Assembly: GCF_051414075.1 (NCBI RefSeq)
Contig: NZ_JBLKNY010000007.1
Span: 12,706-52,705, forward strand
DNA length: 40,000 nucleotides
Source: Halosimplex marinum
Lineage (GTDB): Archaea; Halobacteriota; Halobacteria; Halobacteriales; Haloarculaceae
Reading direction: 5' to 3'
The stretch's first letter is position 1. The number at the start of each line of letters is the position of its first letter. Positions 8,437-34,195 of this stretch are shown here, piece after piece. The translations under genes were made by a program, and so were the position numbers. The notes beneath the pieces are model-generated. The model was given only the letters and a program-made list of their open reading frames with translations, ran no database searches and was not told the DNA's origin.

Positions 8437-9981
8437 TCAGTCCTCGATCTCGGCGGCGGGCGCGTTGCGTTTGACGCTCTCGATACCGTCGCGGGCGCCG
8501 CTACGGTCGCTGTAGCCCTCGCCGCTGTCCATCAGGATGTTGCCGTTGCGGTGCCGGAGTCGCCAGCGGTGCTCGCCGCCGGCGTCCTCGTAGATCTCGA
8601 AGGCCGCCCGCCCGATGTCGAGGGCGTCCGCCTCGGGCGCGTATTCGCGGACGCGGTCGACCGCCGCTTCCGCCTCGTCGCGGGCGCTGTAACCCTCGCC
8701 GCTGTCGGCGAGGATCTCCCCGTTGCCGCTCAGGAGCCGCCAGCGGTACTCGCCGGCGTTGTCCTCGTAGACCTCGAACTCCAGGTCGTCGACGCGCTCG
8801 CGGACCCGGTCGACCGCCCTGTTGGCGTCGTTGCGACGGGTGTAGCCCTCGCCGCCGTCCGCGAGGATCTCGCCGTTGCGGTGGACGAGCCGCCAGCGCC
8901 ACTCGTCGGCCTCGTCGCGGTAGACCTCGAACCCGGCGGGGTCGAACCAGAGGTAGTCGGCCGGCCCGACGTACGACTGGACGCGGTCGACGGCCCGCCG
9001 GGCGTTGCTCCGCGAGGCGTAGCCCTCGCCGCCGTCGCCGAGAACGTTCCCGTTGTCGTGGCGGAGCCGCCAGCGGTACTCGCCGGCGCTGTCCTCGTAG
9101 ACCTCGATCGTCCCCTGGCTCTCCAGTTCCTCGACGGGTTCGAACTCGGCGTCCTCGTCGGGGATCTCCGCCTCTCGCTCGAACAGCAGCGTCGTCGCGC
9201 CGAGGGCGTTGCGGCGGACGCTCGCCATCCCCTTCTGGGCGTTGTGTTTGCGGGTGTAGCCCTGACCGCCGTCGGCGACGACGTTGCCGTTGCGGTGGCG
9301 GAGCCGCCAGCGCCACTTCCCGCCGGCGTCCTCGTACAGTTCGAACCGGGCACGGCTCTCGTGGAGCGCGTCGAGTGTCGTCTGGAGGTCCGCCGACTCG
9401 CTCTCGCTCGCGGCCGTCTCGTCCCGGGCCTCCTCCAGTTCCGCGGCCAGCCGGTCGCGCTCCCCCTCGACCTCTGCGAGTTCAGCCTCCAGTTCCGCGT
9501 TCCGGCTCTCGCTCGCCGCCAGGTCCTCCCGCGTCACTCCGGCGATCAGCGGGGCGATGACGCCGACCAGGGTGATGATCCCCAGGCCGACCGCGTACAG
9601 GACGATGACCGGCTGGCTCCCGGTCTGGACGCTCCAGTCCGCCGGGAACACGACCACGAACCAGGCCGCCGCGACGAAACAGACGGCCTGTCCGAGATAC
9701 GCCGCGTAGTTGGCCCACGGCTGGAGCGGCAGCCTGATCACGGGCCCCGCGACCAGCATCGCGAGCCCGACGGCCGCGACGAAGATGCTCAGTTCCCGGA
9801 GGGTGAGCCCCGAAGTCCCGACCGCCGACGAACTCGGCAGGAACAGGACGACCCCCAGCGTCCCCAGCACCAGCCCCGTCAGGAACACCCAGTACCCCCG
9901 AACCTCGTCGCGTGTCGTCGGCTCCCCGACTCGGTCCCGATACACGCCGTACAGCAGCCCGTCGTTTGTCTCGGATGCCAT
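8437..9981 (-). CDS. Membrane-anchored protein with coiled coil and five tandem YegP/DUF1508 (UPF0339, HVO_2922-like) modules
   Basis: aa 28-148 form about 4 TM helices and aa 150-210 an acidic coiled coil (ELEAELAEVEGERDRLAAELEEARDE). Five modules of the form FE[LV]YED.AGE.RWRL.H.NG..[LV].D.GEGY..R..A...[VI].[RS]V follow, starting at aa 213, 292, 351, 402 and 461. Confidence 0.85.
   Translation of the reverse strand: MASETNDGLLYGVYRDRVGEPTTRDEVRGYWVFLTGLVLGTLGVVLFLPSSSAVGTSGLTLRELSIFVAAVGLAMLVAGPVIRLPLQPWANYAAYLGQAVCFVAAAWFVVVFPADWSVQTGSQPVIVLYAVGLGIITLVGVIAPLIAGVTREDLAASESRNAELEAELAEVEGERDRLAAELEEARDETAASESESADLQTTLDALHESRARFELYEDAGGKWRWRLRHRNGNVVADGGQGYTRKHNAQKGMASVRRNALGATTLLFEREAEIPDEDAEFEPVEELESQGTIEVYEDSAGEYRWRLRHDNGNVLGDGGEGYASRSNARRAVDRVQSYVGPADYLWFDPAGFEVYRDEADEWRWRLVHRNGEILADGGEGYTRRNDANRAVDRVRERVDDLEFEVYEDNAGEYRWRLLSGNGEILADSGEGYSARDEAEAAVDRVREYAPEADALDIGRAAFEIYEDAGGEHRWRLRHRNGNILMDSGEGYSDRSGARDGIESVKRNAPAAEIED
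8464..9345 (-). repeat. Five in-frame degenerate coding repeats (YegP/DUF1508 modules, 51-79 codon spacing)
   Basis: The recurrent DNA and protein pattern (ctcgtagacctcga... / cgccagcg.ta/cactc...) is seen five times in the translated ORF. Confidence 0.8.
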
Positions 9982-10232: not shown

Positions 10233-11447
10233 TCAGTCGGCGGTGCCGGGGGAACGGGTCTCGGCGTCGACACCGCGCTCCTCGGGCGTGAGGTAACACT
10301 GCGGGTCCGGACCGAAGGGGCCGTCGCCGTCGGACAGCGCCCGCAGGCGGGAAGCGCCGCGACAGATGTCCTGGTACTGGCAGTCGGCGCAGCGGCCGGT
10401 GAGGTGCTCCTCCCGCTCGCGAAGTGCGCCCAGCAGCGGGTTCGAGTCGTCGGTCCAGATGTCCCCGAACGGGCGGTCGCGGACGTTGCCCAGCGAGTAG
10501 CCCTGCCAGAACTGCGTGAGGTGGACGTTGCCCTGGTAGTCCACGTCGGCGATCCGCTCGCCCGTCGGGTCGCCGCCGTTCTCCAGGAGGTATCCGTGGA
10601 TCCGGTCGGCCGTCGCCTCGTCCAGTTCCCGGCGGGCGTACTCGACGAGGTAGCCCGCGTCGGCGTAGTTGCCGACCAGTAGCGTCTCGATCTCGTGGCC
10701 CCTGTCGTGGTACTCGCGGGTCAGCTCGCAGACCCGCCGGACCGCCGCCCGGCGCTCGTCGGGGGTCAGGTCCACGTCCTGAATCTCGGCCCCCCGGCCG
10801 CCGTAGTCGAGGTGATAGAAGCAGAAGCGGTCGACGCCGCGGTCGGCCAGCAGATCCACCACGTCTTCGAGGTCGTCGGCGTTGTGGCGGGTGATCGTGT
10901 AGCGGAGTCCGGTCTTCAGCCCCGCCGACTGGGAGGCCGCGATGCCCTCCAGCGCGCGGTCGAACGCGCCCTCCCGGCCGCGGAAGGCGTCGTTGCGCTC
11001 GGGCATCCCGTCGACGGAGACGCCGACGTACTTGAGTCCCGCGTCGCGGAGCGCCGCCGCCCGATCCTCGGTCAGCAGCGTCCCGTTGGTCGAGAGGACG
11101 GGGCGGAGGCCCGCATCGCTGGCGTGACCGACCAGTTCGACGAGGTCCTCGCGAGCCAGCGGCTCGCCCCCCGAGAAGAGGACGACGGGCGCGCCGAACT
11201 CGGCGAGCTCGTCGAGGAACTGCTTGCCCTCCGCAGTGGTCATCTCGCCGGGAGCGGGTTCCGTCTCGGCGGCGGCGTAGCAGTGGTCGCAGTAGAGGTT
11301 GCACTGCTTCGTGCAGTTCCAGACGACGACCGGCCGGCGCTGTTTGCGCTCGCGGATCTGTTCTTTCTCGGACTCGTCGGCGGCGTCGTATCGGAGCCCG
11401 TCCCCCTCCGCGTCGAGGTCACAGAGGAGCTTGCTGACCGAGATCAC
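10233..11447 (-). CDS. Radical SAM / SPASM-domain enzyme (NirJ/AhbC-like clade)
   Basis: GTG start at 11447. The CxxxCxxC motif is CNLYCDHC (11280..11303). GGEPL is present, and the C-terminal SPASM-type cluster is GRCADCQYQDICRGASR...DPQCYL. Confidence 0.85.
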   Translation of the reverse strand: MISVSKLLCDLDAEGDGLRYDAADESEKEQIRERKQRRPVVVWNCTKQCNLYCDHCYAAAETEPAPGEMTTAEGKQFLDELAEFGAPVVLFSGGEPLAREDLVELVGHASDAGLRPVLSTNGTLLTEDRAAALRDAGLKYVGVSVDGMPERNDAFRGREGAFDRALEGIAASQSAGLKTGLRYTITRHNADDLEDVVDLLADRGVDRFCFYHLDYGGRGAEIQDVDLTPDERRAAVRRVCELTREYHDRGHEIETLLVGNYADAGYLVEYARRELDEATADRIHGYLLENGGDPTGERIADVDYQGNVHLTQFWQGYSLGNVRDRPFGDIWTDDSNPLLGALREREEHLTGRCADCQYQDICRGASRLRALSDGDGPFGPDPQCYLTPEERGVDAETRSPGTAD

Positions 11448-11845
11448 GCGTCCTCACCCCCGGCGGCGGTCGATCCGGCCGCCTCGGTTTCCTCGGTCGG
11501 GTCGCCGGTCGCGTCGTCGCTCGCCCGGTCGGAGAGCGCGACGCCGTCGGCGGCGAACCGACGGGTCTCGTCGGCGGGGCAGAGCCACAGCGTCTCGGCG
11601 GACCAGCCGAACAGCCGTGCGGCCTGTTCGCGGGCGATCTCGGCCGAGGGGGCGCTGACGCTGCCGGCGTGGGTCAGCGGATCGCCGGACTCCTCGCGGA
11701 CGAACAGCTCCCACTCCCGGGTCACGTCGCCGCGCGGCGCGTCGACCGTCGCGTCGAGGGCGCCGTCACCTCCCTCGCGGTCGGGGTCGGGATCGACATC
11801 GGGGTCGGACATATCGGACGGGACGGACTCGCTATTCATACCCAC
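11444..11845 (-). CDS. Small acidic rSAM-partnered protein with PaaB-like core (Htur_1727-like family, from memory)
   Basis: 133 aa. The core REWELFVREESGDPLTHAGSVSAPSAEIAREQAARLFGWSAETLWLCPADE is flanked by Asp/Glu/Pro/Thr-rich tails. The stop overlaps the rSAM GTG (GTGA at 11444..11447). Third-position GC is high. Confidence 0.75.
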   Translation of the reverse strand: MGMNSESVPSDMSDPDVDPDPDREGGDGALDATVDAPRGDVTREWELFVREESGDPLTHAGSVSAPSAEIAREQAARLFGWSAETLWLCPADETRRFAADGVALSDRASDDATGDPTEETEAAGSTAAGGEDA

Positions 11846-12005
11846 TGCACCGGATTTTCAGTCACTGGGAACGCGGCCGCCCGCTTAGGTAGTGCAGTCC
11901 GAACTCCACGGCGATGACCGCGATCCGAACGGGACCGCTGGCGGACGACAGGGTGCTGGACCGACGCCGAGGGGGCCCCGAGCGGGCGCCCCGGAGGTGG
12001 CGCTG

Positions 12006-13142
12006 ATGCGGCCGCCGGTCGACACCGCCGAGCGCCCGCTCGTGCTCATCTGGGAGGTCACCCGGGCCTGCGAACTGACCTGCGACCACTGCCGGGCCGA
12101 CGCCCGGCCCGCCCGCCACCCCGACGAGCTCTCGACGGCCGAGGGCAAGCGCCTGCTCGACCAGACCGCCGACTTCGGTGACCGCCAGCTGGTCGTCCTC
12201 TCGGGCGGCGACCCGATGAAACGGCCGGACCTGGTGGAACTGGTCGACTACGGGACCGACCAGGGACTCACGGTCTCGCTGACGCCCAGCGGGACCGACG
12301 AACTCGACGCCGGCTCGATCGGCGACCTGGCCGACGCCGGGCTCAAGCGGATGGCACTGAGCGTGGACGGCGCGACGCCCGAGCGCCACGACGCCTTCCG
12401 CGGCGAACCGGGGAGCTTCGAGGCGACGATGCGGGCCGCGAGACAGGCCCAGCAGGCGGGGATCCCGCTGCAGATCAACACCTCGGTCTGCGCCGACACC
12501 GTCGAGGATCTGCCGGCGATCCGCGACGTGGTGGCCGACCTCGGCGCGGTGCTGTGGAGCGTGTTCTTCCTCGTGCCCGTCGGTCGCGGGCAGGTGTTAG
12601 ACCCCATCGCACCCGACCGGGCCGAGCGGGTCATGGAGTGGCTGGCCGAGGTGGCCGACGAGGCGCCGTTCGGCCTGAAGACGACGGAGGCGCCCCACTA
12701 CCGGCGGGTCCGCCGGCAGGCGGCCGCCGAGTCGGAGGGGGCCTCGGCGGGGGCAGGCGGCGACGACGCCCCGACCGCCGACGAGAACCGGCGGGCGAGC
12801 GTCCTCGCGGGCGACGGCTTCGCGTTCGTGAGCCACACCGGCGAGGTGTACCCCTCGGGGTTCCTGCCGAAGTCGGCGGGCACGGTCCCCGAGGACCACG
12901 TCGCCGAGGTGTACCGCGAGTCGGACCTGTTCACGGCCCTGCGGGACCGCGACGAACTGCGCGGGAAGTGCGGCGCCTGTCCCTTCAGGGAGGTCTGCGG
13001 CGGGAGCCGGTCGCGGGCGTACGCCCACACCGGCGACCCGCTGGCGAGCGACCCGCTCTGCGGGTACGTCCCGCCGGGCTACGACGGCCCGCTCCCCTGG
13101 GAGGACGCGAGCGAGGCGGTCCGGGCGGAGGGCCGACCCTGA
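12006..13142 (+). CDS. Radical SAM / SPASM-domain enzyme (AhbD/NirJ-like; TIGR04053-like from memory)
   Basis: MRPPVDTAERPLVLIWEVTRACELTCDHCRA (CxxxCxxC at 12069..12092), then LSGGDP, then the SPASM region GKCGACPFREVCGGSRSRAY...DPLCGY. Start chosen at ATG 12006; the tracked ORF begins at 11892. Confidence 0.85.
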   Translation: MRPPVDTAERPLVLIWEVTRACELTCDHCRADARPARHPDELSTAEGKRLLDQTADFGDRQLVVLSGGDPMKRPDLVELVDYGTDQGLTVSLTPSGTDELDAGSIGDLADAGLKRMALSVDGATPERHDAFRGEPGSFEATMRAARQAQQAGIPLQINTSVCADTVEDLPAIRDVVADLGAVLWSVFFLVPVGRGQVLDPIAPDRAERVMEWLAEVADEAPFGLKTTEAPHYRRVRRQAAAESEGASAGAGGDDAPTADENRRASVLAGDGFAFVSHTGEVYPSGFLPKSAGTVPEDHVAEVYRESDLFTALRDRDELRGKCGACPFREVCGGSRSRAYAHTGDPLASDPLCGYVPPGYDGPLPWEDASEAVRAEGRP

Positions 13143-13306: not shown

Positions 13307-13684
13307 ATGGTCCGTGACCCGTTCGCGGACGACGAGGCGCCGGACCTCCAGGAGGTGCTCGACGCGCTCGACGACCCCGACTGCCGGGCCATCGTCACCG
13401 CCCTGGAGGAACCGATGACCGCCAGCGAGATCTCCGAGGCCAGCGACATCCCCCTCTCGACGACCTACCGGAAGCTCGACCGCCTGGAGGAGGCCCAGCT
13501 GCTGTTCGAGGGCACCGAGATCCGCCCCGACGGCCAGCACGCCAGCATCTACGAGGTCGACTTCGAGGAAGTCGTCATCGCTTTGACCGAGGAGCGCGAG
13601 TTCGAAACCGAGATCGCCCGTCGGCCACGGACGCCGGACCAGCGCCTCGAATCGCTCTGGTCGGAGGTGCGCAAGGAAACATGA
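13307..13684 (+). CDS. ArsR-like winged-helix transcription regulator
   Basis: LDALDDPDCRAIVTALEEPMTASEISEASDIPLSTTYRKLDRLEEAQLL is an HTH_20/ArsR-type motif. Confidence 0.8.
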   Translation: MVRDPFADDEAPDLQEVLDALDDPDCRAIVTALEEPMTASEISEASDIPLSTTYRKLDRLEEAQLLFEGTEIRPDGQHASIYEVDFEEVVIALTEEREFETEIARRPRTPDQRLESLWSEVRKET

Positions 13685-14022
13685 GCCCACACGCTACACC
13701 CGGAACCGTCGTGCTCGTCGCGTTGAAGACCATCACGCTCATCCTCGGCGGGATGATCACCTACTTCTCCTACAAGGCCTACCGCCGGAGCGGCGCCCGG
13801 CCGCTGTGGTATCTCGCGGTCGGGTTCGGGATCGTCACGGCCGGAACCTTGCTTGCGGGCGCTATCGACCAGGCGATACGCTTCTCGCTGTTCGGCGTCA
13901 ACGTCCCCTTCTTCGGCGGGAACGTCGACAACCAGACCGTCGCCGACTTCGCCCTCGCCATCGAGAGCGCCCTGACCGCGACCGGCTTCGCCGTCATCGT
14001 CTACTCGCTGTACTCGGAGTAG
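13681..14022 (+). CDS. Small integral membrane protein, translationally coupled to the HTH regulator
   Basis: ATGA overlap at 13681..13684. 113 aa with about 3-4 hydrophobic helices (VVLVALKTITLILGGMITYF, LWYLAVGFGIVTAGTLLAGAI, ALTATGFAVIVYSLY). Confidence 0.7.
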   Translation: MSPHATPGTVVLVALKTITLILGGMITYFSYKAYRRSGARPLWYLAVGFGIVTAGTLLAGAIDQAIRFSLFGVNVPFFGGNVDNQTVADFALAIESALTATGFAVIVYSLYSE

Positions 14023-15601: not shown

Positions 15602-16240
15602 ATGCGCGTACTACTGCTCGGAGCGAGCGGACGGATCGGACGGCGCGTCGCGTCGGAACTGCTCGACCGCGGCCACGAGGTCACGGGCGTCTCGCGCAAC
15701 GGGACGGTCGACGGGGTCGACGACCCGTCGTTCGTCGCCGTGTCGGGCGACGCGAGCGACCCGGACGCCGTGGCCCGGCTGGCGACCGGCCACGACGCCG
15801 TCGCCAGCGCGCTCGGCCCGGGCGACGACGAGGACCCGGCCGTACTCGTGGAGATGATGGAGGCGACCGTCGAGGGGCTGCGGCGGGCGTCGGTCGACCG
15901 CCTCGTCTGGACGGGCGGCGCCGGCGGCCTGTCGGTCGGGCCGGACACCCGCCTCGTCGAGACCGACGACTTCCCCGACGAGTGGGAGCCCCTCGCCCGC
16001 GCGGCCATCGACGCCTACGAGGTCCTGGCGGAGGCCGACGACCTGGCGTGGACGTACCTCGCGCCGGCCGCGCTGATCGAACCCGGCGAGCGGACCGGGG
16101 AGTACCGCACCGCCGAGGGCGAACTCGTCGCGGACGACGAGGGCGACAGCTACATCTCGATGGAGGACTTCGCGGTCGCGCTGGCGGACGTGCTCGAATC
16201 GGGCGAGGCGGTCCACACCTACCTCGGCACGGGGTACTAG
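15602..16240 (+). CDS. NAD(P)H-binding (NmrA/atypical SDR-like) protein
   Basis: MRVLLLGASGRIGRRVASELLDRGHEVTGVSR is a Rossmann GxxGxxG motif. Alternative ATG at 15575. It lies in the frame of tracked ORF 14468..16240. Confidence 0.8.
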   Translation: MRVLLLGASGRIGRRVASELLDRGHEVTGVSRNGTVDGVDDPSFVAVSGDASDPDAVARLATGHDAVASALGPGDDEDPAVLVEMMEATVEGLRRASVDRLVWTGGAGGLSVGPDTRLVETDDFPDEWEPLARAAIDAYEVLAEADDLAWTYLAPAALIEPGERTGEYRTAEGELVADDEGDSYISMEDFAVALADVLESGEAVHTYLGTGY

Positions 16241-17928
16241 TAGGTGTAGACGACCGCCTCGAACGGGCGGAAGGTCGCGCCGACGGGATCGGCCGGGGGG
16301 TCGTCGCAGTTGGCGAGGAGAATCTCGGCGTCGCTCGCGGCGAACCCCTCGGGTTCGAACGTCGCCGGTTCGTCGGACCAGTTGCAGACGACGAGCCGGC
16401 GCTCGCCGTCGAGCGTCCGGGTGAACGCGTAGAACTGGTCGTCGTCGGGGACGAGCGGGTCGTAGTCGCCGTAGACGAAGACCGGGTCGTCGTCCCGGAG
16501 GTCGATCAGCCGGCGGTAGTGGTGGAAGACGGACTCGTCGTCGGCGCGTGCGGCGGCGGCGTTGACCTCGGTGTAGTTGTCGTTGACGGGCAGCCACGGG
16601 TCGCCGTCGGTGAAGCCGGCGGCCTCGTCGTCGGACCAGTGCATCGGCGTGCGGGCGTGGTCGCGGCTGCGGTAGTTGACCGCCTCGCGCACGTCGTCGA
16701 ACGAGTCGGCAGTGCCGGCGTCGAGCATGTCCTCGACGAGGCCGACGGTCATCGCGTCGTCGATATCGTCGAGGCTCTCGAACTCGGTGTTGGTCATCCC
16801 GAGCTCCTGGCCCTGGTAGAGATAGGGCGTGCCCCGCATCGTCAGCAGGAAGGTGGCGACGAGCTTCGCGGAGCGGCGGCGGTACGAGTCGTCGCCGAAC
16901 CGCGAGACGATCCGCGGGTGGTCGTGGTTGCCGAGGAACAGCGCCTCCCACGCGGGCTCGGCGACCGCCCGCTGGTTGCGGGTCATCAGCTCCTTGAACT
17001 CCCGGAGGCTCCACTCGCCCCAGTTGTCGTCGGTCCAGTCGTCGGCCTGGTCGACGTCGAGGTGGTCGAAGTGGAACACCATGTCCAGGCACTCGCCCCG
17101 CTGGACGAACTCCCTGGCGTCGTCAGCGTCGGCGCCGCCCATCTCCCCTGCGGACATCGCCTCCTCGGGCACGACCGCGCCGAGCTCGTCGAGGTACTCG
17201 CCGAGCTGCGGCCCGAAGGTGTAGTGTTCCGAGCCGAGCGGGCCGGGCTCGTCGGGGTCGCCGTCGGGGTACCCCTCCGCCTTCGAGAGGTGGCTGATGG
17301 CGTCCATGCGGAACCCGTCGATGTCCTTCTCGACCCACCAGGTGACGATGTCTTTGACCGCCTCGCGCACGTCTGGGTTGCGCCAGTTCAGGTCGGGCTG
17401 GTTCTCGTTGAAGACGTGGAGGTACCACGCCTCCCGTTCGTCGTCCCACGACCACGCCGACCCGCCGAACAGCGACTCCCAGTTGTTCGGCGGTTCGTCG
17501 GGTTCGCCCTCGACCCAGTGGTAGTAGTCTGCGTACTCGCCCTCTCCGCGCTGGGACTTGCGGAACCACTCGTGTTCGCTGGAGGTGTGGTTGACGACCA
17601 GGTCCATGATGAGCTTCATGTCCCGGTCGTGGAGTTCGTCGCGGAGCGCCTCCCAGTCGCTCATGTCGCCGAACTCCTCGTTGATGGCGCGGTAGTCGCG
17701 GATGTCGTAGCCGTTGTCGTGGTTCGGCGAGTCGTAGACCGGCGAGAGCCACACCACGTCGACCCCGAGTTCGTCGAGGTAGTCGACGCGCTCGGTGACG
17801 CCGGGGACGTCCCCGACGCCGTCGCCGTCGCTGTCCGAGAAGCTCCGCGGGTAGATCTGGTAGACCACTGCCTCCTTCCACCACTCGCGGTCGATGCGAC
17901 TGTCCGTGGACTGGTGCTGCTGTGTCAT
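16237..17928 (-). CDS. GH13 alpha-glucosidase / oligo-1,6-glucosidase family, paralogue 1
   Basis: From ATG 17928: MTQQHQSTDSRIDREWWKEAVVYQIYPRSF..DSDGDGVGD. Also GFRMDAISHL and FLGNHDHPRIVSRFG. Confidence 0.9.
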   Translation of the reverse strand: MTQQHQSTDSRIDREWWKEAVVYQIYPRSFSDSDGDGVGDVPGVTERVDYLDELGVDVVWLSPVYDSPNHDNGYDIRDYRAINEEFGDMSDWEALRDELHDRDMKLIMDLVVNHTSSEHEWFRKSQRGEGEYADYYHWVEGEPDEPPNNWESLFGGSAWSWDDEREAWYLHVFNENQPDLNWRNPDVREAVKDIVTWWVEKDIDGFRMDAISHLSKAEGYPDGDPDEPGPLGSEHYTFGPQLGEYLDELGAVVPEEAMSAGEMGGADADDAREFVQRGECLDMVFHFDHLDVDQADDWTDDNWGEWSLREFKELMTRNQRAVAEPAWEALFLGNHDHPRIVSRFGDDSYRRRSAKLVATFLLTMRGTPYLYQGQELGMTNTEFESLDDIDDAMTVGLVEDMLDAGTADSFDDVREAVNYRSRDHARTPMHWSDDEAAGFTDGDPWLPVNDNYTEVNAAAARADDESVFHHYRRLIDLRDDDPVFVYGDYDPLVPDDDQFYAFTRTLDGERRLVVCNWSDEPATFEPEGFAASDAEILLANCDDPPADPVGATFRPFEAVVYTY

Positions 17929-19664
17929 CGTTCTGTGTCGGTCGGGCTGTCGAGGGCCGGTCCGTCGGGGTCGGGCGTCAGGTAGACCCACGCCTCCCAC
18001 GGGCCGAGGTCGAGCCTCCGTCCGGGGACCGCCGGGGCGTCGTCGTTGGCGAGCGCGAGTTCGAGGCCGTCGACGGTCACGCCGTCGGGCACGTCGAACG
18101 TCGTCGGCTCGTCGTCGAAGTTGAGGACGATCAGCGCGCGCTCGGCGGGTCCGTCACCGTCGTCCGCGAGCGTGCGGGTGTACGCGAAGATGTCCGGGTG
18201 TTCGGGGGCGAGCAGTTCGAAGTCGCCGTAGACGAGCAGGTCGCGGTCCCGGAGCGCGACCAGGTCGCGGTAGTAGTGAAACACCGAGTCGGGGTCGGCG
18301 CGGGCGCGGGAGACGTTGACTTCGGTGTAGTTGGGGTTGACGCCGATCCACGGCTCGCCGTCGGTGAAGCCGGCCGCCGCCTCGTCGCTCCACTGCATCG
18401 GGGTGCGGGCGTTGTCGCGGCTCATCGCCTCGACGGCCTCGCGCACGTCCTCGTAGGCGTCGGCGTGGCCGTCGGGGTCGTCGACGGCCGACGCGACGTA
18501 GTTGCGCGCCTCCACGTCCCGGAGGGCCTCGCGGGACTCGAACGGCGCGTTCGTCATGCCGATCTCCTCGCCCTGGTAGACGAACGGCGTGCCGCCGAGG
18601 GTGTGGGTGAGCGTCCCGAGGAGCTTCGCGGACTTCCGGCGGTACTCGCCGTCGTCGCCGAACCGCGAGACCATGCGGGGCTGGTCGTGGTTGTTGAGAT
18701 ACAGCGAGTTCCAGCCCTCGTCGGCCAGGCCCTCCTGCCACTTCGCGAGGATCTCCTTGAACTCGACGAGATCGGGGCCGTCGGCGTCCCACTTCGAGTC
18801 GCCGTGGTCGAAGGTGACGTGCTCGAACTGGAAGAGCATCGAGAGGCCGTCGCCGTCCGCGCCGACGTACTCGCGGGCGTCGTCGACGGAGACGCCCGGC
18901 GTCTCGCCCACCGCCAGGATCTCCTCGTCGTCGAGGACCTCCTCGACCATCTCGCCGACGTACTCGTGGACGCGCGGGCCGTTCATGAAGTGCTGTGCGT
19001 TGCCCGAGTCGCCGCCGTCGGGGTAGCCCGCTGCCTTGGAGATCATGTTGATCACGTCCATGCGGAAGCCGTCGATTCCCCTGTCGAGCCACCACTCCAT
19101 CATGTCGTAGAGCGCCTCGCGCACCGCGGGATTGGCCCAGTCGAGGTCGGGCTGTTTCTCGTCGAAGAGGTGGAGGTACCACGCCTCGCGCTCGTCGTCG
19201 TAGGACCACGCGGGGCCGCCGAACACCGACTGCCAGTCGTTCGGTGGCTCGTCGGGCTCGCCCTCGACCCAGTGGTAGTAGTCGGCGTACTCGCCGTCCC
19301 CGCGGCGCGAGCGCTGGAACCACTCGTGCTCGTCGGAGGTGTGGTTGACGACGAGGTCCATGATCAGACGGATCCCGCGTTCGTGGAGTTCGTCGCGCAG
19401 GCGCTCCCAGTCTCCCATGTCGCCGTAGGCGTCGTCGATGGCCCGGTAGTCGGCGATGTCGTAGCCGTTGTCGGCCTGCGGCGAGGCGTAGACGGGGTTG
19501 AGCCAGACGGCGTCGACCCCCAGTTCGTCGAGGTAGTCGACGCGGTCGATCAGCCCCGGCAGGTCCCCGACGCCGTCGCCGTCGCTATCGTTGAAGCTCT
19601 TCGGGTAGACCTGGTAGACGACCGCTTCCTTCCACCAGACTCGCTCGTCGTCGTCGCCGCTCAT
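17925..19664 (-). CDS. GH13 alpha-glucosidase / oligo-1,6-glucosidase family, paralogue 2
   Basis: MSGDDDERVWWKEAVVYQVYPKSFNDSDGDGVGD, GFRMDVINMI, YLNNHDQPRMVSRFG. Its stop overlaps the start of paralogue 1 (ATGA at 17925..17928). Confidence 0.9.
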   Translation of the reverse strand: MSGDDDERVWWKEAVVYQVYPKSFNDSDGDGVGDLPGLIDRVDYLDELGVDAVWLNPVYASPQADNGYDIADYRAIDDAYGDMGDWERLRDELHERGIRLIMDLVVNHTSDEHEWFQRSRRGDGEYADYYHWVEGEPDEPPNDWQSVFGGPAWSYDDEREAWYLHLFDEKQPDLDWANPAVREALYDMMEWWLDRGIDGFRMDVINMISKAAGYPDGGDSGNAQHFMNGPRVHEYVGEMVEEVLDDEEILAVGETPGVSVDDAREYVGADGDGLSMLFQFEHVTFDHGDSKWDADGPDLVEFKEILAKWQEGLADEGWNSLYLNNHDQPRMVSRFGDDGEYRRKSAKLLGTLTHTLGGTPFVYQGEEIGMTNAPFESREALRDVEARNYVASAVDDPDGHADAYEDVREAVEAMSRDNARTPMQWSDEAAAGFTDGEPWIGVNPNYTEVNVSRARADPDSVFHYYRDLVALRDRDLLVYGDFELLAPEHPDIFAYTRTLADDGDGPAERALIVLNFDDEPTTFDVPDGVTVDGLELALANDDAPAVPGRRLDLGPWEAWVYLTPDPDGPALDSPTDTER

Positions 19665-19886
19665 CGCCGGTCACCGTTCCGTCGGACCCTCGCAGACGGT
19701 TCCACGGACCGCAGGTGAGCCACGGTACCGTCCCGCTCGCGTCCGACGATTCGCTTATCACGTCGTATCGCTTGGATGCGTTTCATGGGTGGCGTCCGGA
19801 AGTCCGACGCGGACTCCGCTCGACAAATACTGACTGGAACGACTCACTTAATTCTGACGAGGATATTGAAGAACAGATTCAACCAA

Positions 19887-19897
19887 AGTTTTATGGG
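19887..19897 (+). promoter_or_regulatory. TATA-like element for the ABC transporter operon
   Basis: aagttttatgg is centred about 33 nt upstream of ATG 19925. Confidence 0.35.
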
Positions 19898-19924
19898 TAA
19901 GTCTATCATGGTCTTGAACGAGCG

Positions 19925-21844
19925 ATGTCTGACAACCAGAACCACGGGTCGAACGGGACGCCCATGTCGCGCCGGCGGATGATGCGGTTGCTCGGTGCGA
20001 CCGGCGTCGCGACGGGCCTCGCGGGCTGTGGTGGACAGTCGGCAGTGGAAACCGAGACAGAAGGCGACGGCGGTGACGGCGGCGCCGACGGCGGCGACGG
20101 TGGAGACGGCGGCTCCGAGACGCCGGAGTCGACCGCCACGCCGGAGGGATTCGAGAGCACCTCGATGGGGACCATCCAGGAGCTGGCCTACGTCACCAAC
20201 CAGACGCTGCCGGTGTTGCCGGTCATGGAGAAGCTGGCCCAGTCGTTCCAGGCGACCGACGACTGGTCGGTTCCCTCGGCCGACAGCGAGAAGATGCAGG
20301 TGTACTGGCCGACCAGCTGGCTGCCCCGGACCGGCGACTGGACGCTGAAGGAGGGCGCCGACGACGAGCGGCTGACCCTCGCCCAGTGGGCCGTCCCCGC
20401 CGACTCCCAGTACAACGTCTGGAACGGCACGAACGACGGGGAGGCCCGGCGGATGCTCTTCGACCGCTTCATGCGGTACAACGTCGCCACGCGGGAGTAC
20501 CACCCCTACGTGATCAGCGACTGGGAGGTCAGCGAGTCGGCGCTGACCCTCTCGGTCCGCGAGGGGCAGACCTGGCACGACGGCGAGCCCGTCACCGGGA
20601 CGGACGTGGCCAACCACCTCAAGCTCGACCTCTACAACAGCGCCGGCGGCGGCGGGATCGGCCCGTACGTCCTGCCGGAGGGCGACATGAACGCGGTGCC
20701 CGACCGCGTGCAGGCGACCGGCGAGAAGACCGTCGAGGTCACGCTCGAACAGGCCGTCAACGAGGAGATCCTCCTGTCGCTGCTCGCGCCGACGCGGCTG
20801 CGCGCCTACGACGAGGTCTACGGCGAGTACGTGACCGCCCTCGACGAGGCCGAGAGCGAGGAGGAGCGGTCGTCGGCGCTGGGCGAGCTGACGGAGTTCA
20901 CCGACGCCGAGCCGGTCGGCAACGGCCCCTTCCAGTGGGAGGACGCCGACAGCCAGCGGACGCTCGTCTCGAAGTACGAGGGCCACCCCGACGCGGACAA
21001 CATCAACTTCTCCGAGGTCGAGTACCTGTACAAGCCCCAGAACTCCGGCCGGTGGAGCTCGCTCATCAACGGCGAGACCGACGGGTCTGCGACGCTGTTC
21101 ATGCCGCAGAACCAGACTCGACGGCTGCCCGACCACATGCAGACCGCGCTGGTCTCCCGTCACTGGGGGATGGGGATCGTCTTCAACCACGACCGCGAGC
21201 CGGTGGACGACGTGCGCGTCCGGAAGGCGATCGCCAACGTCATCGACCGCGAGGCCGCGGCGGGCAACTCCGCGGCGGGCACCGGGTCGAAGGTCGCCGT
21301 CACGTACCCGAGCGGCCTGACCGGCGAGTTCAACGGACAGATCGAGGGCCACTGGCTCGAGGGCGTCGCCGACGAGTTCGACACCTACGGTCGCGCCGAG
21401 CAACGCACCGAGCGTGCCGCCGAGCTGCTCCGCGAGGCCGGCTACGAGAAGAGCGGCGGTACCTGGCAGAAGGACGGCGAGCCGCTCTCGCTGCCGATCA
21501 AGGGGCCCGCGGGCTTCTCCGACTGGGTCTCCGGCGTCCAGACCATCGTCTCGCACCTCCAGGACTTCGGCATCGAGTCCGAGCCGATCATGCAGGACTC
21601 GGCGACCTACTGGGGCGGCGACTACGTCGAGGGCGACTTCAAGCTCGCGCTCCAGGGGTGGGCGTCGTACAACCACACCCACCCGTACTTCCACTTCGAC
21701 TGGATCTACCGGAGCGGGGACGCCACGGACTACTGGAACGTCCCGACCGAGTACGAGGCACCGATCCTGCACGAGGACCTGCGCGACTCGGAGACCATCG
21801 CCCCCGACGGGTACATCTCCGACCTGGCCACGCCCCAGGAATGA
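19925..21844 (+). CDS. ABC transporter substrate-binding lipoprotein (family 5, Opp/Dpp-type; probably sugar-binding)
   Basis: Twin-arginine signal plus lipobox, MSRRRMMRLLGATGVATGLAGCGG, followed by an acidic Thr/Gly/Asp linker. 639 aa, a size typical of SBP_bac_5. Confidence 0.9.
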   Translation: MSDNQNHGSNGTPMSRRRMMRLLGATGVATGLAGCGGQSAVETETEGDGGDGGADGGDGGDGGSETPESTATPEGFESTSMGTIQELAYVTNQTLPVLPVMEKLAQSFQATDDWSVPSADSEKMQVYWPTSWLPRTGDWTLKEGADDERLTLAQWAVPADSQYNVWNGTNDGEARRMLFDRFMRYNVATREYHPYVISDWEVSESALTLSVREGQTWHDGEPVTGTDVANHLKLDLYNSAGGGGIGPYVLPEGDMNAVPDRVQATGEKTVEVTLEQAVNEEILLSLLAPTRLRAYDEVYGEYVTALDEAESEEERSSALGELTEFTDAEPVGNGPFQWEDADSQRTLVSKYEGHPDADNINFSEVEYLYKPQNSGRWSSLINGETDGSATLFMPQNQTRRLPDHMQTALVSRHWGMGIVFNHDREPVDDVRVRKAIANVIDREAAAGNSAAGTGSKVAVTYPSGLTGEFNGQIEGHWLEGVADEFDTYGRAEQRTERAAELLREAGYEKSGGTWQKDGEPLSLPIKGPAGFSDWVSGVQTIVSHLQDFGIESEPIMQDSATYWGGDYVEGDFKLALQGWASYNHTHPYFHFDWIYRSGDATDYWNVPTEYEAPILHEDLRDSETIAPDGYISDLATPQE

Positions 21845-21918
21845 CCCTCGCACGAACGGGGACGGCCCCGTCAACGCGGCGGTGGAGCTAACAGGCGCCG
21901 TCTCACACCGTTTCACAC

Positions 21919-22932
21919 ATGAAATACTTCGTCAAACGCATCGGACAGTCGGTGTTCACCGTCTTCGCGGTGGTGTCGTTCAGCTTCGGCCTCATCCGGC
22001 TCCTGCCGGGGGGACCGATGGACTACCTCCGCGCGCAGATCATGGAGCAGGGGGGCAGCAACCTGTCGCCGGAGGCGATAAACCGGCGCATCGAGGCCCA
22101 GTCGGGGATCAACCCGGACGAGCCGGTGTACGTCCAGTACGTCGACTACATGCTCGGCCTCGCGCAGGGCGATTTCGGCCAGTCGGTCTGGTACGGCGAC
22201 CCCGTCGCGAGCATCATCGGCCCGGCGATCCCCTGGACCGTGTTCCTGACCGCCTCGGCGCTGTTCATCGCCTTCACCGTCGGCGTCTCGCTGGGCGCGG
22301 TCATGGCCTACAAGGAGGGCTCGACGTTCGACGTCGGGTCCACCGGCGTCGGCCTGGTGCTCAACTCGACGCCGGGCTACGTCGTCGCGCTACTGCTCGT
22401 CGCGTACCTGGGTTACCGCTACCAGATCTTCCCGACCGGCGGGCGGTACAACTCCGCGCTCGACCCCGCGCTCACCAACCCCGAGTTCCTGCTGAGCGTC
22501 CTCTACCACGGGGCGATGCCGATCGCGTCGATGGCGGTCGTCGGCTTCGGCGGCTGGGCGCTGTCGATGCGCGGCAACGCCATCCGCGTCCTCGGGGAGG
22601 ACTACCTCCGCGTGGCGCGCCTGCGCGGGCTCTCGACCCGCCGGATCGCCCTGCGGTACGTCGCGCGCAACGCCATCCTGCCGATGTACACGGGCCTGAT
22701 GATCGCCATCGGGACCGTCTTCGGCGGGGCGGTGATCATCGAGAACATCTTCGCGTACCCGGGCGTCGGGTTCTACCTGATCAAGGCCATCGGCGCCCGG
22801 GACTACCCGCTGATGATGGGCGGGTTCATCCTGATCACCATCGCGATGGTCATCGGCATCACCATCGCCGACCTGACCTACGGGATACTCGACCCGCGCG
22901 CCAGGGGAGGTGCCTCGCGTGAGTCCTACTGA
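21919..22932 (+). CDS. ABC transporter permease (DppB/OppB-like)
   Basis: MKYFVKRIGQSVFTVFAVVSFSFGLIRLLPGGP is the classic OppB N-terminus. EAA-type loop: EDYLRVARLRGLSTRRI. Confidence 0.9.
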   Translation: MKYFVKRIGQSVFTVFAVVSFSFGLIRLLPGGPMDYLRAQIMEQGGSNLSPEAINRRIEAQSGINPDEPVYVQYVDYMLGLAQGDFGQSVWYGDPVASIIGPAIPWTVFLTASALFIAFTVGVSLGAVMAYKEGSTFDVGSTGVGLVLNSTPGYVVALLLVAYLGYRYQIFPTGGRYNSALDPALTNPEFLLSVLYHGAMPIASMAVVGFGGWALSMRGNAIRVLGEDYLRVARLRGLSTRRIALRYVARNAILPMYTGLMIAIGTVFGGAVIIENIFAYPGVGFYLIKAIGARDYPLMMGGFILITIAMVIGITIADLTYGILDPRARGGASRESY

Positions 22933-24208
22933 CGACGAACGGGGCGACGACCCGCAACCGGGTGAGGAGGCCGACTCCGACCCCGCCTTCGACGCGATCG
23001 CGGGCAACGACGACGCCATCGACCCGGCGGCGGTCACCGGGACCGACGACGACGCCGGCCCGTCGCGGCCGGCCATCTCCGGGCACGCCTGGAAGGGGCG
23101 GCTCCCAGCGGCCGACGGAGAGCGCGATGACGACCTCCGCGCGGACGGCGGCGAGCGCACCGACGACCTCCGCTCCGACGGTGCCGGCGGGTCGGTCTCG
23201 GAGTTCGAGCAGATGGCCGACGTGACGCTCAGCGAGAGCGAGCGCCGCCGGCAGTGGTTCGAGGAGAAGGTGCTCGCGCCGGCCCGGATCGTCTGGGACG
23301 ACTGGCGGGCCCGCTTCGGCGTCGCCGTCGTCACGCTGTACCTGTTCATGGGGCTCGTCGGCCCCCACGTCGTCGCGGAGCCGTCGCCCAATCAGGGCCG
23401 GCGGCTGATCGGGGCGTTCCGGACGCTGGAGCACCCGTTCGGGACGACCGCCTCCGGCGTGGACATCCTCTCGCAGCTCGTCTACGCGACGCCCGCGATG
23501 CTGTTGATGATCACGGCCGGCGCGGTGTTCACGGTCGTCCTCGGGACGGCCGTCGGCACGCTCGCCGGCTACAAGGGCGGGCGCGTCGACAGCGTCCTGA
23601 TGACGATCACCGACGTGATGATGACCATCCCGGGCCTGCCGCTGACCATCGTCCTCGCGGCGGTGCTGCAGATCGAGGGCCACCCGGTGGTCATCGGCGT
23701 CCTCATCACGGTCAACGCCTGGGCGGGGCTCGCACGCGCGATCCGCTCGCAGGTGCTGACGCTGCGGGACGCCGAGTACGTCGAGGCCTCGCGCATCATG
23801 GGGATCCCGACCCCGCGGATCATCGGCAGCGACATCGTCCCGAACCTGATGCCGTACATCTCGATGAACTTCGTCCGGCAGGCCCGCGCGGTCATCTTCG
23901 GGGCCGTCGGGCTCTACTTCCTCGGCGTCCTGCCGTACAACAGCAACAACTGGGGCGTCATGATGAACGCCGCGGTCAACCGCGCGGGGGCGACCTCCTC
24001 CGCGGCGGCGTTCCACTGGCTGCTCGTCCCGATGGTGACGATCATCGTCCTCGCGCTCGGGCTGACCCTGCTCGCGCAGGGCGCCGACCGCGTGTTCAAC
24101 CCGCGGGTCCGCGCCCGCCACGCGAAGACCGTCGAGGACGACGGCGACGAGGAGGGCGACGCCGGCGGCCCCGGCGGCGCCACCAGCGCGGCCACGGGAG
24201 GTATCTGA
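22910..24208 (+). CDS. ABC transporter permease (DppC/OppC-like) with about 100-aa acidic N-terminal extension
   Basis: AEYVEASRIMGIPTPRII is the EAA loop. GTG at 22910 or 22919; internal ATG at 23213. The extension has high third-position GC, so it is probably translated. Confidence 0.8.
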   Translation: MPRVSPTDDERGDDPQPGEEADSDPAFDAIAGNDDAIDPAAVTGTDDDAGPSRPAISGHAWKGRLPAADGERDDDLRADGGERTDDLRSDGAGGSVSEFEQMADVTLSESERRRQWFEEKVLAPARIVWDDWRARFGVAVVTLYLFMGLVGPHVVAEPSPNQGRRLIGAFRTLEHPFGTTASGVDILSQLVYATPAMLLMITAGAVFTVVLGTAVGTLAGYKGGRVDSVLMTITDVMMTIPGLPLTIVLAAVLQIEGHPVVIGVLITVNAWAGLARAIRSQVLTLRDAEYVEASRIMGIPTPRIIGSDIVPNLMPYISMNFVRQARAVIFGAVGLYFLGVLPYNSNNWGVMMNAAVNRAGATSSAAAFHWLLVPMVTIIVLALGLTLLAQGADRVFNPRVRARHAKTVEDDGDEEGDAGGPGGATSAATGGI

Positions 24209-24209
24209 C

Positions 24210-26498
24210 ATGGCGAGCACGCGCGACGACACGAGCGGCACCGACGGGTCCTCGCGGGGCCGCGACGAGACGGCCCGCGCGACCGACGACCCCATCGTCG
24301 AGGTGCGCAACGTCAGCGTCACCTACGACCTGCAGGCCCGCGACGCGATGGTGCTCGACGACGTGAGCCTCGACCTGCGCCGCGGGGAGATCCTCGGCTG
24401 TGTCGGGGAGTCCGGGTCGGGCAAGTCCATGCTCGCCAACGCGATGATGGACGCCGTCGAGGAGCCCGGGATCACCACCGGCGACGTGCGCTACTACCCC
24501 TCGGAGAACGCCGACCCGGTCCACGTCCTCGATCTTTCGGGCGACGATCTCAAGCAGTTCCGCTGGGAGGAGATCTCGATGGTCTTCCAGGGCGCCCTCT
24601 CCTCGTTCAACCCCACGATGACCATCGGCGGGCACTTCGAGGAGACGCTGGAGGCCCACGACTACGACGTCGACGAGGGCATGGAGCGGGCCCACCAGCT
24701 GCTGTCGGACCTGTATCTGGACCCCGAGCGCGTCCTGAACTCCTACGCCCACGAGCTGTCGGGCGGGATGAGCCAGCGGGCGCTGATCGCCCTGTCGCTC
24801 ATCCTCGAACCGGACGTGCTCCTGATGGACGAGCCGACCGCCGCGCTGGACCTGCTGATGCAGCGGTCGATCCTCTCCTTGCTCGACGACATCAAGGAGA
24901 AGTACGAGCTGTCGATCCTCTTCATCACGCACGACCTGCCGCTGGTCGCGGGGCTGGCCGACCGGCTGGCCATCCTCTACGCGTTCGAGCTGGCGGAGGT
25001 CGGGCCGAGCGAGCGGCTCGTCCGCGACTCCTCGCACCCCTACACCAGAGCACTGCTGAAGGCGGTACCGAACCTCGACGCACCCCTGGAGACGATGCAG
25101 CCGATCGAGGGGACCGCGCCGAACCCGGCGCACGTCCCGGACGGTTGCCACTACGCGCCGCGGTGTCCGCTGGCCGACGAGCGCTGCCACGAGGAGAAAC
25201 CGGAGTGGTACGACGCCGGCCCGGACCAGCGCTCGGCCTGCTTCTACCACGAGCGGGCCGACGAGGCCGTGCCGTTCGACGTGGAGGGCGTCGCCGAGGC
25301 CGTCGAGGCGACCGCCGACGAGGCCGATACCGACGACGCCGGCGCGTTCGGAGCCGGCGCGAGCGGTGGGAGCGGCGGGCGCGGCGCGCTCGCCGCACCG
25401 GACGACGAGACCGTCGTCTCGCTGGACGACGTGTCCATCCACTTCGAGGAGGAGCAGGGGCTGCTCGGGTCGCTGACCGGCGACCCCGAGACGGTCCACG
25501 CGGTCGACGACGTGTCCATCGACATCCCGGAGAACGACGTGCTGGCGCTGGTCGGCGAGTCGGGCTGCGGGAAAACGACGCTCGGCAAGGCGATCATCGG
25601 CGTCCAGCGGCCGACGGAGGGGACCGTCTCCTACCGCGGTCAGGACGTCTGGGACGCCAAGGACGGCGTCGGCGGCCCCGAGATCGAATACGGCGACATC
25701 CGCCGGGCGCTGCAGATTATCCACCAGGACCCGGGCGCGTCACTGAATCCCAACCAGAAGGTCGTCACCTCGCTGGAGGCGCCGCTGAAGCGCTGGAACC
25801 CCGAGCTGTCGACCGAGGACCGCCGGGCGCGCATCTACGCGCTGCTCGACCGGGTCGGAATGACCCCGCCCGAGGACTACGCCAACCGCTTCCCCCACCA
25901 GCTCTCGGGCGGGGAGCAACAGCGGGTGGCGCTCGTCCGCGCCCTGCTGATGAACCCGGACGTGATCCTCGCCGACGAGGCCGTCTCGGCGCTGGACGTG
26001 TCCCTGCGGGTGGAGACGATGGACCTGCTGCTCGAACTGCAGGAGCAGTTCAACACCTCCTTCGTCTTCATCTCGCACACGCTGTCGAACGCCCGCTACC
26101 TCGCGGAGAAGGCCGACGGCCGCATCGGGATCATGTACCTCGGTGAACTCGTCGAGGTCGGCCCGCCCGACGAGGTGCTCAACGACCCCCAGCACCCCTA
26201 CACGAAGGTGCTGCGGTGGGCGACGGCGAACTTAGACCCCAGCGACCAGGAGATGACCGAGCCGCCGGTCCGGTCGATCGACATTCCGGACCCCGTCGAC
26301 CCGCCGACGGGCTGTCGGTTCCACACCCGCTGTCCGGAGGCCCGCGAGGCCTGCGTGAGCGAGGCGCCGGACCTGGACGAGTCGGGGTCCGGCGAGCGCG
26401 CGGTCGCGTGCCACCGGGCGGACCCGAACCACCCCTACTGGGACAGCGAACCTCTGGAGGGCGTCGACGCCGCGGAGTCGCCGAACGCCGGGGACTGA
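24210..26498 (+). CDS. Fused double ABC ATPase (DppD-DppF-type fusion)
   Basis: Two complete nucleotide-binding domains: GESGSGKS / LSGGMSQR / LLMDEPT, and GESGCGKT / LSGGEQQR / ILADEAV. They are joined by an acidic Gly/Ala linker, and each is followed by a Cys-containing oligopeptide-type C-terminal segment. Confidence 0.9.
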   Translation: MASTRDDTSGTDGSSRGRDETARATDDPIVEVRNVSVTYDLQARDAMVLDDVSLDLRRGEILGCVGESGSGKSMLANAMMDAVEEPGITTGDVRYYPSENADPVHVLDLSGDDLKQFRWEEISMVFQGALSSFNPTMTIGGHFEETLEAHDYDVDEGMERAHQLLSDLYLDPERVLNSYAHELSGGMSQRALIALSLILEPDVLLMDEPTAALDLLMQRSILSLLDDIKEKYELSILFITHDLPLVAGLADRLAILYAFELAEVGPSERLVRDSSHPYTRALLKAVPNLDAPLETMQPIEGTAPNPAHVPDGCHYAPRCPLADERCHEEKPEWYDAGPDQRSACFYHERADEAVPFDVEGVAEAVEATADEADTDDAGAFGAGASGGSGGRGALAAPDDETVVSLDDVSIHFEEEQGLLGSLTGDPETVHAVDDVSIDIPENDVLALVGESGCGKTTLGKAIIGVQRPTEGTVSYRGQDVWDAKDGVGGPEIEYGDIRRALQIIHQDPGASLNPNQKVVTSLEAPLKRWNPELSTEDRRARIYALLDRVGMTPPEDYANRFPHQLSGGEQQRVALVRALLMNPDVILADEAVSALDVSLRVETMDLLLELQEQFNTSFVFISHTLSNARYLAEKADGRIGIMYLGELVEVGPPDEVLNDPQHPYTKVLRWATANLDPSDQEMTEPPVRSIDIPDPVDPPTGCRFHTRCPEAREACVSEAPDLDESGSGERAVACHRADPNHPYWDSEPLEGVDAAESPNAGD

Positions 26499-26621
26499 CG
26501 ATGGCGGTCCCGCCCGCCCGGCCGCGGGCCGCTCTGACATGCGGCGGCCCGGCGCGGGGTCGGGCGGTGGCGGGACCATGAAGTGCCCGGCCGTCGATCA
26601 CCGCGTACGGAGGACGTGGGT

Positions 26622-26819: not shown

Positions 26820-26910
26820 GCGGCCGCGGCGGACGACGGGAGCGGCGAAGCCGCCGATCGAATATGCAAGAGGAACAACCATACGTGAGACCGATCAACG
26901 GACCGATATC

Positions 26911-29430: not shown

Positions 29431-29554
29431 ACGTCCGACGGTTGGCCGCCCGCACGCCTCTCCCTTTGCCCGAATATGTTCGTCCGTGCCGACAGCGTTT
29501 CGGCCGAGCGCGTTCGCCACCAGATTGAGGGGGCGAGCGGACGAGGTCGGGGAT

Positions 29555-34186: not shown

Positions 34187-34195
34187 TCGATACTG

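Follow-up and report, generated by a model that had tools for sequence, protein, structure and literature searches.

A PaaB-like small protein coupled to a putative AhbC in a probable haem-synthesis locus of Halosimplex marinum

The locus and its two radical SAM enzymes

The 40-kb stretch of Halosimplex marinum DNA analysed here (contig NZ_JBLKNY010000007.1, positions 12,706 to 52,705; called the window below, with positions counted from its first letter) contains two divergently oriented genes for radical S-adenosylmethionine (SAM) enzymes, which we call A and B, and between them a gene for a small acidic protein, S, whose end overlaps the start of A (Table 1). We consider it probable that this is a haem-synthesis locus in which AhbC, the predicted product of A, has S as a lineage-specific partner derived from the epoxidase subunit PaaB, and that S is not the precursor of a ribosomally synthesized and post-translationally modified peptide (RiPP).

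A first-pass annotation of this DNA, made from the letters alone, had described an uncharacterised radical SAM system in which a divergent pair of enzymes brackets a translationally coupled small protein. Its anatomy of the locus holds: the coordinates and strands of the three genes, the length of S, the cysteine motifs of both enzymes, the GTGA overlap and the divergent space of about 160 bp are all present in the DNA as described. At the overlap the forward strand reads tcac, which is GTGA on the reverse strand, and the TGA stop of S thereby overlaps the GTG start of A. Because an NCBI protein of Halosimplex marinum with 100% identical sequence has 122 amino acids, the true start of S is likely to be Met12 (11812), in which case the spacer between S and B becomes 193 bp. 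The GC content at third codon positions (GC3) is 0.92, 0.88 and 0.93 for the three open reading frames (ORFs), values typical of real genes in sequence of about 70% GC.

Table 1. Coordinates of the genes and motifs of the locus within the window
Feature	Position	Strand	Description
A	10233-11447	-	404 amino acids, GTG start; radical SAM/SPASM, TIGR04347, predicted haloarchaeal AhbC orthologue
A radical-SAM cluster motif CNLYCDHC	11280-11303	-	residues 49-56; Cys49, 53, 56
A auxiliary-cluster (SPASM) motif CX2CX5CX21C (CADCQYQDIC...C)	10296-10391	-	Cys353, 356, 362, 384
S	11444-11845	-	133 amino acids from GTG; small acidic protein, TIGR04031 (Htur_1727 family), predicted PaaB-fold core
S conserved core	11555-11755	-	residues 31-97; N-terminal xPRGxxxR and beta-beta-alpha-beta PaaB-like domain (predicted)
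GTGA overlap, S stop/A start	11444-11447	-	translational coupling
S/B divergent spacer	11846-12005		160 bp
B	12006-13142	+	378 amino acids; radical SAM/SPASM, TIGR04053, predicted haloarchaeal AhbD orthologue
B radical-SAM motif CELTCDHC	12069-12092	+	residues 22-29
B auxiliary motif CX2CX5CX20C (CGACPFREVCGG...C)	12969-13061	+	residues 322-352

Gene A matches TIGR04347 with 712.5 bits (cut-off 525), residues 2-391 aligning with model positions 1-390. This family, like TIGR04031 and TIGR04053, had been suggested by the first-pass annotation; a check with hidden Markov models places the three proteins above the cut-offs of all three families (scores for S and B are given below). The next-best models for A are NirJ1 (TIGR04054, 427 bits) and AhbC (TIGR04546, 416 bits), both in end-to-end alignments, and the next-best model for B is AhbD. 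The proposed resemblance to NirJ, AhbC and AhbD was thus well founded, and it extends to the auxiliary-cluster motifs, since a C-terminal CX2CX5CX20-21C motif has been described for all three proteins (PMC10114771).

Pfam assigns Radical_SAM, Fer4_12 and SPASM to A, the last two scoring above cut-off in A only and not in B. The protein retains CxxxCxxC, GGE and CX2CX5CX21C and is colinear with AhbC and NirJ1. None of the 80 genomic homologues of A has lost CxxxCxxC, and the 120 database homologues all retain it together with GGE and the auxiliary motif. Because 200 of 200 homologues keep CxxxCxxC, the label "pseudo-SAM" carried by TIGR04347 is a misnomer. Homologues of A are 71-94% identical, with 167 invariant columns in an alignment of 81 sequences. 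On sequence grounds, A is the haloarchaeal orthologue of AhbC and a predicted two-cluster radical SAM enzyme.

The TIGR04347 gene of Haloferax elongans, which is 70% identical to A and is preceded by an S homologue, we take to be the equivalent of HVO_1121, relying on genus-level synteny and on the identity of cetZ3 as HVO_1113. HVO_1121 and HVO_2144 have been assigned as the ahbC and ahbD genes of Haloferax volcanii (PMC5746218; also PMC8305020), and the Natrialba magadii genome paper gives Htur_1726 of Haloterrigena turkmenica and NP1542A of Natronomonas as AhbC (PMC3403918). No solved structure of AhbC, AhbD or NirJ was found in the PDB, where PqqE is the closest protein in sequence to both A and B and SkfB is also close.

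Gene B scores 485.3 bits against TIGR04053 (cut-off 395) and 330.2 bits against its next-best model, AhbD (TIGR04545), with residues 14-356 aligned end to end to model positions 2-339; its Pfam assignment is Radical_SAM. Of the 33 B homologues examined, 31 have both cluster motifs intact, and the remaining two are split matches. We regard B as the predicted haloarchaeal AhbD orthologue of the TIGR04053 family. Its link to HVO_2144 runs through the literature on Htur_1728 of Haloterrigena turkmenica and NP1546A of Natronomonas, which are AhbD orthologues (PMC3403918). Htur_1727, after which the S family is named, is the gene between Htur_1726 and Htur_1728. A Haloferax strain deleted for ahbD grows poorly under anaerobic conditions and is rescued by haem (PMC5746218). 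Hence the AhbC and AhbD identities of A and B are already in the literature and are not new, and the description of the enzymes as uncharacterised was mistaken, both being named there and the deletion phenotype of ahbD being known.

The small protein and its coupling to ahbC

The small protein scores 117 bits against TIGR04031 (cut-off 57.2). In the family alignment its core is flanked by variable acidic tails, and 18 core positions, R38, E44, W45, E46, F48, L57, H59, G61, S62, S64, A65, P66, A75, L78, W87, C89, P90 and R96, are invariant in that alignment. The sole cysteine of S, Cys89, is kept in about 93% of members and replaced in about 5% (by A, T, V or I). The AlphaFold model of S contains a beta-beta-alpha-beta domain, with a predicted local distance difference test score (pLDDT) of 86-89 over residues 41-80. 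When this model was compared with the PDB using Foldseek, the top three matches were to PaaB (3egr, 4iit_B), with template modelling (TM) scores of 0.73-0.74, a root-mean-square deviation of 2.5 Å and 27-29% identity, and no protein other than PaaB was matched at E < 0.5.

Profile searches point the same way. The S profile retrieves PaaB chains only from among PDB sequences, and hhalign aligns the S family with PaaB-like proteins at 99.3% probability (E 4e-20, 42% identity over 60 columns). Against the PaaB models themselves, S remains under the cut-offs (PF06243, 25.4 versus 27; TIGR02157, 23 versus 85; NF041867, 26.6 versus 150), and it covers only the N-terminal 60% or so of these models. 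Taken together, the alignments and the predicted structure indicate that S is a homologue of PaaB, a Halobacteria-specific offshoot with a folded globular core. In phenylacetyl-CoA epoxidase, PaaB is a bridging subunit that carries no cofactor: it sits in a cleft where PaaA and PaaC meet, and as a dimer it brings together the (PaaACB)2 hexamer (PMC4498308). Within the window, no paaA, paaC or paaE gene was found.

An exhaustive profile search of 1.8 billion representatives (clusters at 50% identity) returned 233 proteins at E ≤ 1e-3 and about 90 at E ≤ 1e-10. The matches weaker than about 1e-9 are genuine PaaB proteins, often in tandem, and the named divergent members of the S family all come from Halobacteria, a class to which the family appears to be confined. 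A large protein with several S-like stretches (P0321) proved to be a WD40/STAND NTPase and was discarded as a false positive. Two over-long homologues (P0254 and P0287) were considered as domain fusions, and no known domain is joined to S in either.

To place S in its genomic context, species-representative genomes were scanned with A; from 244 relatives, 80 loci were kept, representing about 25 named genera and several metagenome-assembled genomes (MAGs). The S profile finds a homologue at 74 of these 80 loci, or 74 of the 79 that can be assessed. The conservation of the small ORF beside these enzymes, on which the first-pass annotation had staked its proposal, is thereby borne out. At 73 loci S immediately precedes A on the same strand, and 69 of these 73 pairs have an overlap of exactly 4 nucleotides between the stop of S and the start of A. 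The exceptions to the S-A arrangement are four Halorientalis loci, one contig that ends 32 nucleotides upstream of A, one inverted copy and a second copy of A in Halosimplex aquaticum.

Gene B behaves differently from S. A homologue of more than 55% identity is located within 6 kb of A in 43 loci and is not in the neighbourhood in the other 37. It is divergent and upstream in 32 loci, as here, with roughly 100-290 bp separating it from the beginning of the S domain, and convergent and downstream in 8. In Haloarcula, S-A is found in 19 of 19 loci, and B is not nearby in 18 of them. Haloferax elongans has an S of 95 amino acids that overlaps its TIGR04347 gene by 4 nucleotides and has no B nearby, in agreement with Haloferax volcanii, where ahbC and ahbD lie apart. 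The proportion of loci with B agrees with the report that ahbD is present in about two thirds of haloarchaea and chdC in nearly all (PMC8305020). Other neighbours of S-A in the window are common to only 0-2 of the 80 loci. Because the S-A overlap is near-universal and B is often not nearby, the conserved unit is S-ahbC, with ahbD as a frequent but optional neighbour. Of the divergent pair that had been said to bracket the small protein, therefore, the S-A unit stands and the part given to B was overstated.

Several individual loci have features of their own. In the four Halorientalis loci (L009-L012), where A has no S upstream, a divergent gene for a halocyanin-like copper protein takes its place, and in Haloferax elongans a copper-binding gene lies directly upstream of S. 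The second locus of Halosimplex aquaticum (L061) carries a second TIGR04347 gene (717 bits, 76% identical to A) with no S, together with a convergent second B-like gene (67% identical). GC3 values of 0.80-0.83, below the norm, suggest that this ahbC/ahbD pair is a horizontally acquired extra copy.

Two further cases involve divergent S-like genes. On a short contig with 63.5% GC (L084, 462-1369), such a gene overlaps by 4 nucleotides an A-like gene whose product has no CxxxCxxC and has GAGE in place of GGE, and which we regard as a divergent, partial "pseudo" radical SAM paralogue. If it is real, a dead A that keeps its S partner argues for a protein-protein relationship between the two; it is a single partial contig, and a metagenome scan found no relatives of this Cys-less A-like fragment. 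In two Halobacteriaceae MAGs with 44-45% GC (L081 and L082), a divergent S-like gene of 98 amino acids has no adjacent A. It adjoins ctaB-like (UbiA) and COX1 genes, another haem-related context, and an AhbD-like gene 60% identical to B lies about 4-5 kb away.

Possible roles of the small protein

The locus would encode the final steps of the siroheme-dependent (alternative) haem pathway. AhbC, encoded by A, would strip 12,18-didecarboxysiroheme of its acetate side chains at C2 and C7, yielding Fe-coproporphyrin III, and AhbD, encoded by B, would decarboxylate two propionates of this intermediate to give haem b in an oxygen-free reaction. Because haloarchaea also have the oxygen-dependent ChdC, B would be dispensable near ahbC. 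The 4-nucleotide stop/start overlap would ensure that S is made in a fixed ratio with AhbC, and S most likely associates with AhbC as a subunit without catalytic function and has its role in haem synthesis. By analogy with PaaB, S may dimerise and bridge two AhbC protomers, or it may form a docking surface; structural bridging of this kind would be the most economical mechanism for S. The second of two readings offered by the first-pass annotation, that these are the last haem steps with a previously unrecognised accessory subunit, has thus stood as regards the enzymes, and the accessory subunit is plausible by inference. More tentative, and in our judgement nearly an even call, is the stronger proposal that haloarchaeal AhbC is heteromeric, with S as an obligate, cofactor-free partner that dimerises or bridges AhbC and possibly passes Fe-coproporphyrin III to ChdC or AhbD.

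A co-fold of S and A was computed as a concatenated chain from a shallow, unpaired alignment of 28 S and 4 A homologues. With this alignment, the pLDDT of the S core (residues 41-90) rises from 76-89 to 85-95. The model as a whole is of low confidence and counts neither for nor against a complex: the predicted TM score is 0.50, the AhbC part is poorly modelled from only four A homologues, and residues 31-40 of S, which contain the N-terminal motif, remain unordered at a pLDDT of 36.

A number of observations weigh against the view that S is a partner of AhbC in haem synthesis. Both enzymes fall under the equivalog cut-offs of their presumed families, A with 416 against 650 bits for AhbC and B with 330.2 against 500 for AhbD. 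No other AhbC or AhbD candidate and no ahbA or ahbB gene lies within the 40-kb window. The four Halorientalis loci and the second copy in Halosimplex aquaticum have A with no adjacent S, and a comparison of S-less A proteins with the rest, made in search of an interface footprint, yields 3 scattered substitutions only, with no loss of a conserved residue. One S homologue is unlinked to A. On the biochemical side, the conversion of didecarboxysiroheme to Fe-coproporphyrin III has been shown only for the AhbC of Methanosarcina barkeri and of Desulfovibrio, in extracts or in vivo (PMC10114771, PMC3942049). Finally, the M. barkeri AhbC is active in Escherichia coli without any S-like protein (PMC3942049). 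Because that enzyme functions without such a partner, S would have to be an add-on outside the core chemistry.

Three other explanations for S can be weighed against this one. It is possible, though we think it unlikely, that S is not a structural subunit at all and is instead a small tetrapyrrole-handling protein that binds didecarboxysiroheme or the reactive product, Fe-coproporphyrin III. Arginines would then hold the carboxylates and His59 or Cys89 could serve as iron ligands, and S would hand its ligand over to ChdC or AhbD or would sense haem and so tune AhbC. The basic residues R38, R43, R50, R72 and R96 and His59 are indeed invariant or nearly so in an otherwise very acidic protein. 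However, His59, R50 and R72 are also conserved in PaaB, and are thus probably structural, and PaaB itself has no cofactor or ligand role (PMC4498308). The retention of Cys89 in most members of the family would fit an iron ligand, but its replacement by A, T, V or I in some of them would not. Handling of a tetrapyrrole would also account for the retention of S whether the next enzyme is AhbD or ChdC, and for the divergent S-like gene beside ctaB, COX1 and an AhbD-like gene in low-GC haloarchaeal MAG sequence.

Less probable still is that S has no functional tie to AhbC, and is a relic PaaB paralogue that history has held in the operon or that acts elsewhere. The few genomes in which A stands without S beside it and shows no compensating change, the S homologue that is unlinked to A, and the independence of methanogen AhbC from any partner are what one would expect if this were so. 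Nevertheless, the exact 4-nucleotide overlap is kept in 69 of the 73 pairs, across several families, while the flanking genes have been completely reshuffled, a pattern that is hard to explain without selection for co-expression, and the S-specific invariant residues point to strong purifying selection on the protein itself.

The remaining explanation, that S is a RiPP or modified-protein precursor subject to radical chemistry by A, B or both, corresponds to the NCBIfam name "rSAM-partnered candidate RiPP" and to the first reading of the first-pass annotation, a radical SAM system that modifies S. It draws on the position of a small ORF directly upstream of, and coupled to, a SPASM radical SAM enzyme, on the frequent action of SPASM enzymes on peptides (PqqE and SkfB being among the closest solved structures) and on the variable acidic tails of S. 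We consider it very improbable: the partner enzymes are predicted orthologues of AhbC and AhbD, which act on tetrapyrroles, S is conserved in a globular domain of PaaB fold and not in a leader or core peptide, the sole cysteine is not universal, the locus is single-copy, near-universal in the class and vertically inherited whereas RiPP clusters are sporadic, no RRE or PqqD-like domain and no peptidase was found by Pfam or gene annotation in A or in neighbouring genes of the window, and the nearby membrane proteins, CNNM and DUF7521, are not RiPP-type exporters.

Surroundings of the locus and comparison with known systems

The spacer between S and B yielded neither sigma-70 promoters nor terminators in a scan whose scope excludes archaeal promoters. 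The palindrome CGAA-N4-TTCG, reported as the site of an anaerobic regulator upstream of the denitrification genes and ahbD of Haloferax, is not present in this spacer. In the window as a whole it occurs 6 times, with 1.05 occurrences expected and none of 100 shuffles reaching 6 (positions 6731, 14974, 28007, 29471, 29988 and 31236). Two of these sites lie about 0.8-1.4 kb upstream of COX1 (30824-32659), within an ORF at 29297-30742, and one lies inside COX1.

Downstream of B, a gene for an HTH_20 (ArsR-like) regulator (13307-13684, forward strand) overlaps by 4 nucleotides the gene for the DUF7521 membrane protein (13681-14022, forward strand). This pair is found within 6 kb of S-ahbC in 29-35 of the 80 genomes, mostly in Haloarculaceae and regardless of ahbD, and the regulator is 68-75% identical between genera. 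The association could reflect synteny at the level of the family, or the protein could be a regulator of the locus. On the other side of A, the gene at 8437-9981 (reverse strand) encodes a protein of 514 amino acids in which an N-terminal DUF7139 membrane domain is combined with an acidic, coiled-coil-like stretch and five DUF1508 repeats, and is common only to the closest Halosimplex relatives.

A sugar-utilisation block at 16237-27969, unrelated to the S-A-B locus, contains two adjacent genes of the alpha-amylase family, a TrmB regulator and an ATP-binding cassette (ABC) transporter consisting of a solute-binding protein, two permeases and a fused double ATPase. GC content drops from about 0.70 to 0.60-0.64 and then to 0.47 at the window end (32001-36000 and 38001-40000), and these low-GC stretches may be of foreign or mobile origin. 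A search of the whole window for tRNA genes found none.

What is new in this analysis is the tie of S to A rather than to B, the PaaB ancestry of S, the apparent restriction of its family to Halobacteria and the correction of the "pseudo-SAM" name; we found no paper that discusses the small protein, its coupling to AhbC or its relation to PaaB. If haloarchaeal AhbC is indeed heteromeric, S would have no precedent in the literature found, either as an accessory protein of the siroheme-dependent haem pathway or as a subunit with a PaaB fold recruited to a radical SAM enzyme. In evolutionary terms, a bridging subunit of a di-iron oxygenase would have been reused by an unrelated radical SAM enzyme. 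The "candidate RiPP" annotations based on TIGR04031 would then be wrong across haloarchaeal genomes, and together with the "pseudo-SAM" label they set genome miners in search of a natural product that probably does not exist. No other enzyme of the alternative haem pathway is as poorly understood as AhbC, and a 2022 review states that work on the purified enzyme had yet to be published (PMC10114771). A conserved, co-translated partner offers a route to a stable AhbC preparation through co-expression with S, as well as a simple genetic test of the S-AhbC pair in Haloferax volcanii. The finding is thus a specific and testable lead on a poorly characterised haem enzyme, and not a new kind of system.

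Among known systems, the closest to the two enzymes are AhbC and AhbD themselves (Mbar_A1793 and Mbar_A1458 of M. barkeri, their Desulfovibrio equivalents, and HVO_1121 and HVO_2144). A and B belong to the same clades, have the same lengths and carry both cluster motifs. They differ in falling into NCBIfam equivalogs of their own, TIGR04347 and TIGR04053, below the thresholds of the AhbC and AhbD models, and in that a PaaB-like gene coupled to the haloarchaeal A stands upstream of it, with no counterpart in the characterised M. barkeri system.

A small gene beside a SPASM enzyme is likewise a feature of maturase systems such as PqqD/PqqE and MftB/MftC and of RRE partners more generally. RRE partners are generally described as winged-helix-like, whereas S is predicted to have a PaaB fold; moreover, the enzymes here are predicted to act on tetrapyrroles, and a separate precursor peptide is lacking.

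With PaaB of the PaaABC(D)E system (3EGR, 4IIT_B), S shares the beta-beta-alpha-beta core and the signature WE(V/L)F(V)R...H.GS..A...A...W..P. Unlike PaaB, S is without the C-terminal third and has an N-terminal PRGxxxR motif and acidic tails of its own, and with no paa genes nearby, its partner is a radical SAM enzyme (AhbC in 73 of the 80 loci) and not a di-iron oxygenase. Finally, the three proteins of the window are clear members of the TIGR04031/TIGR04347/TIGR04053 trio, yet the names of these models fit them badly. The "candidate RiPP" label in particular is disfavoured, being contradicted by the predicted PaaB fold of S and by the probable identity of its partner as AhbC.

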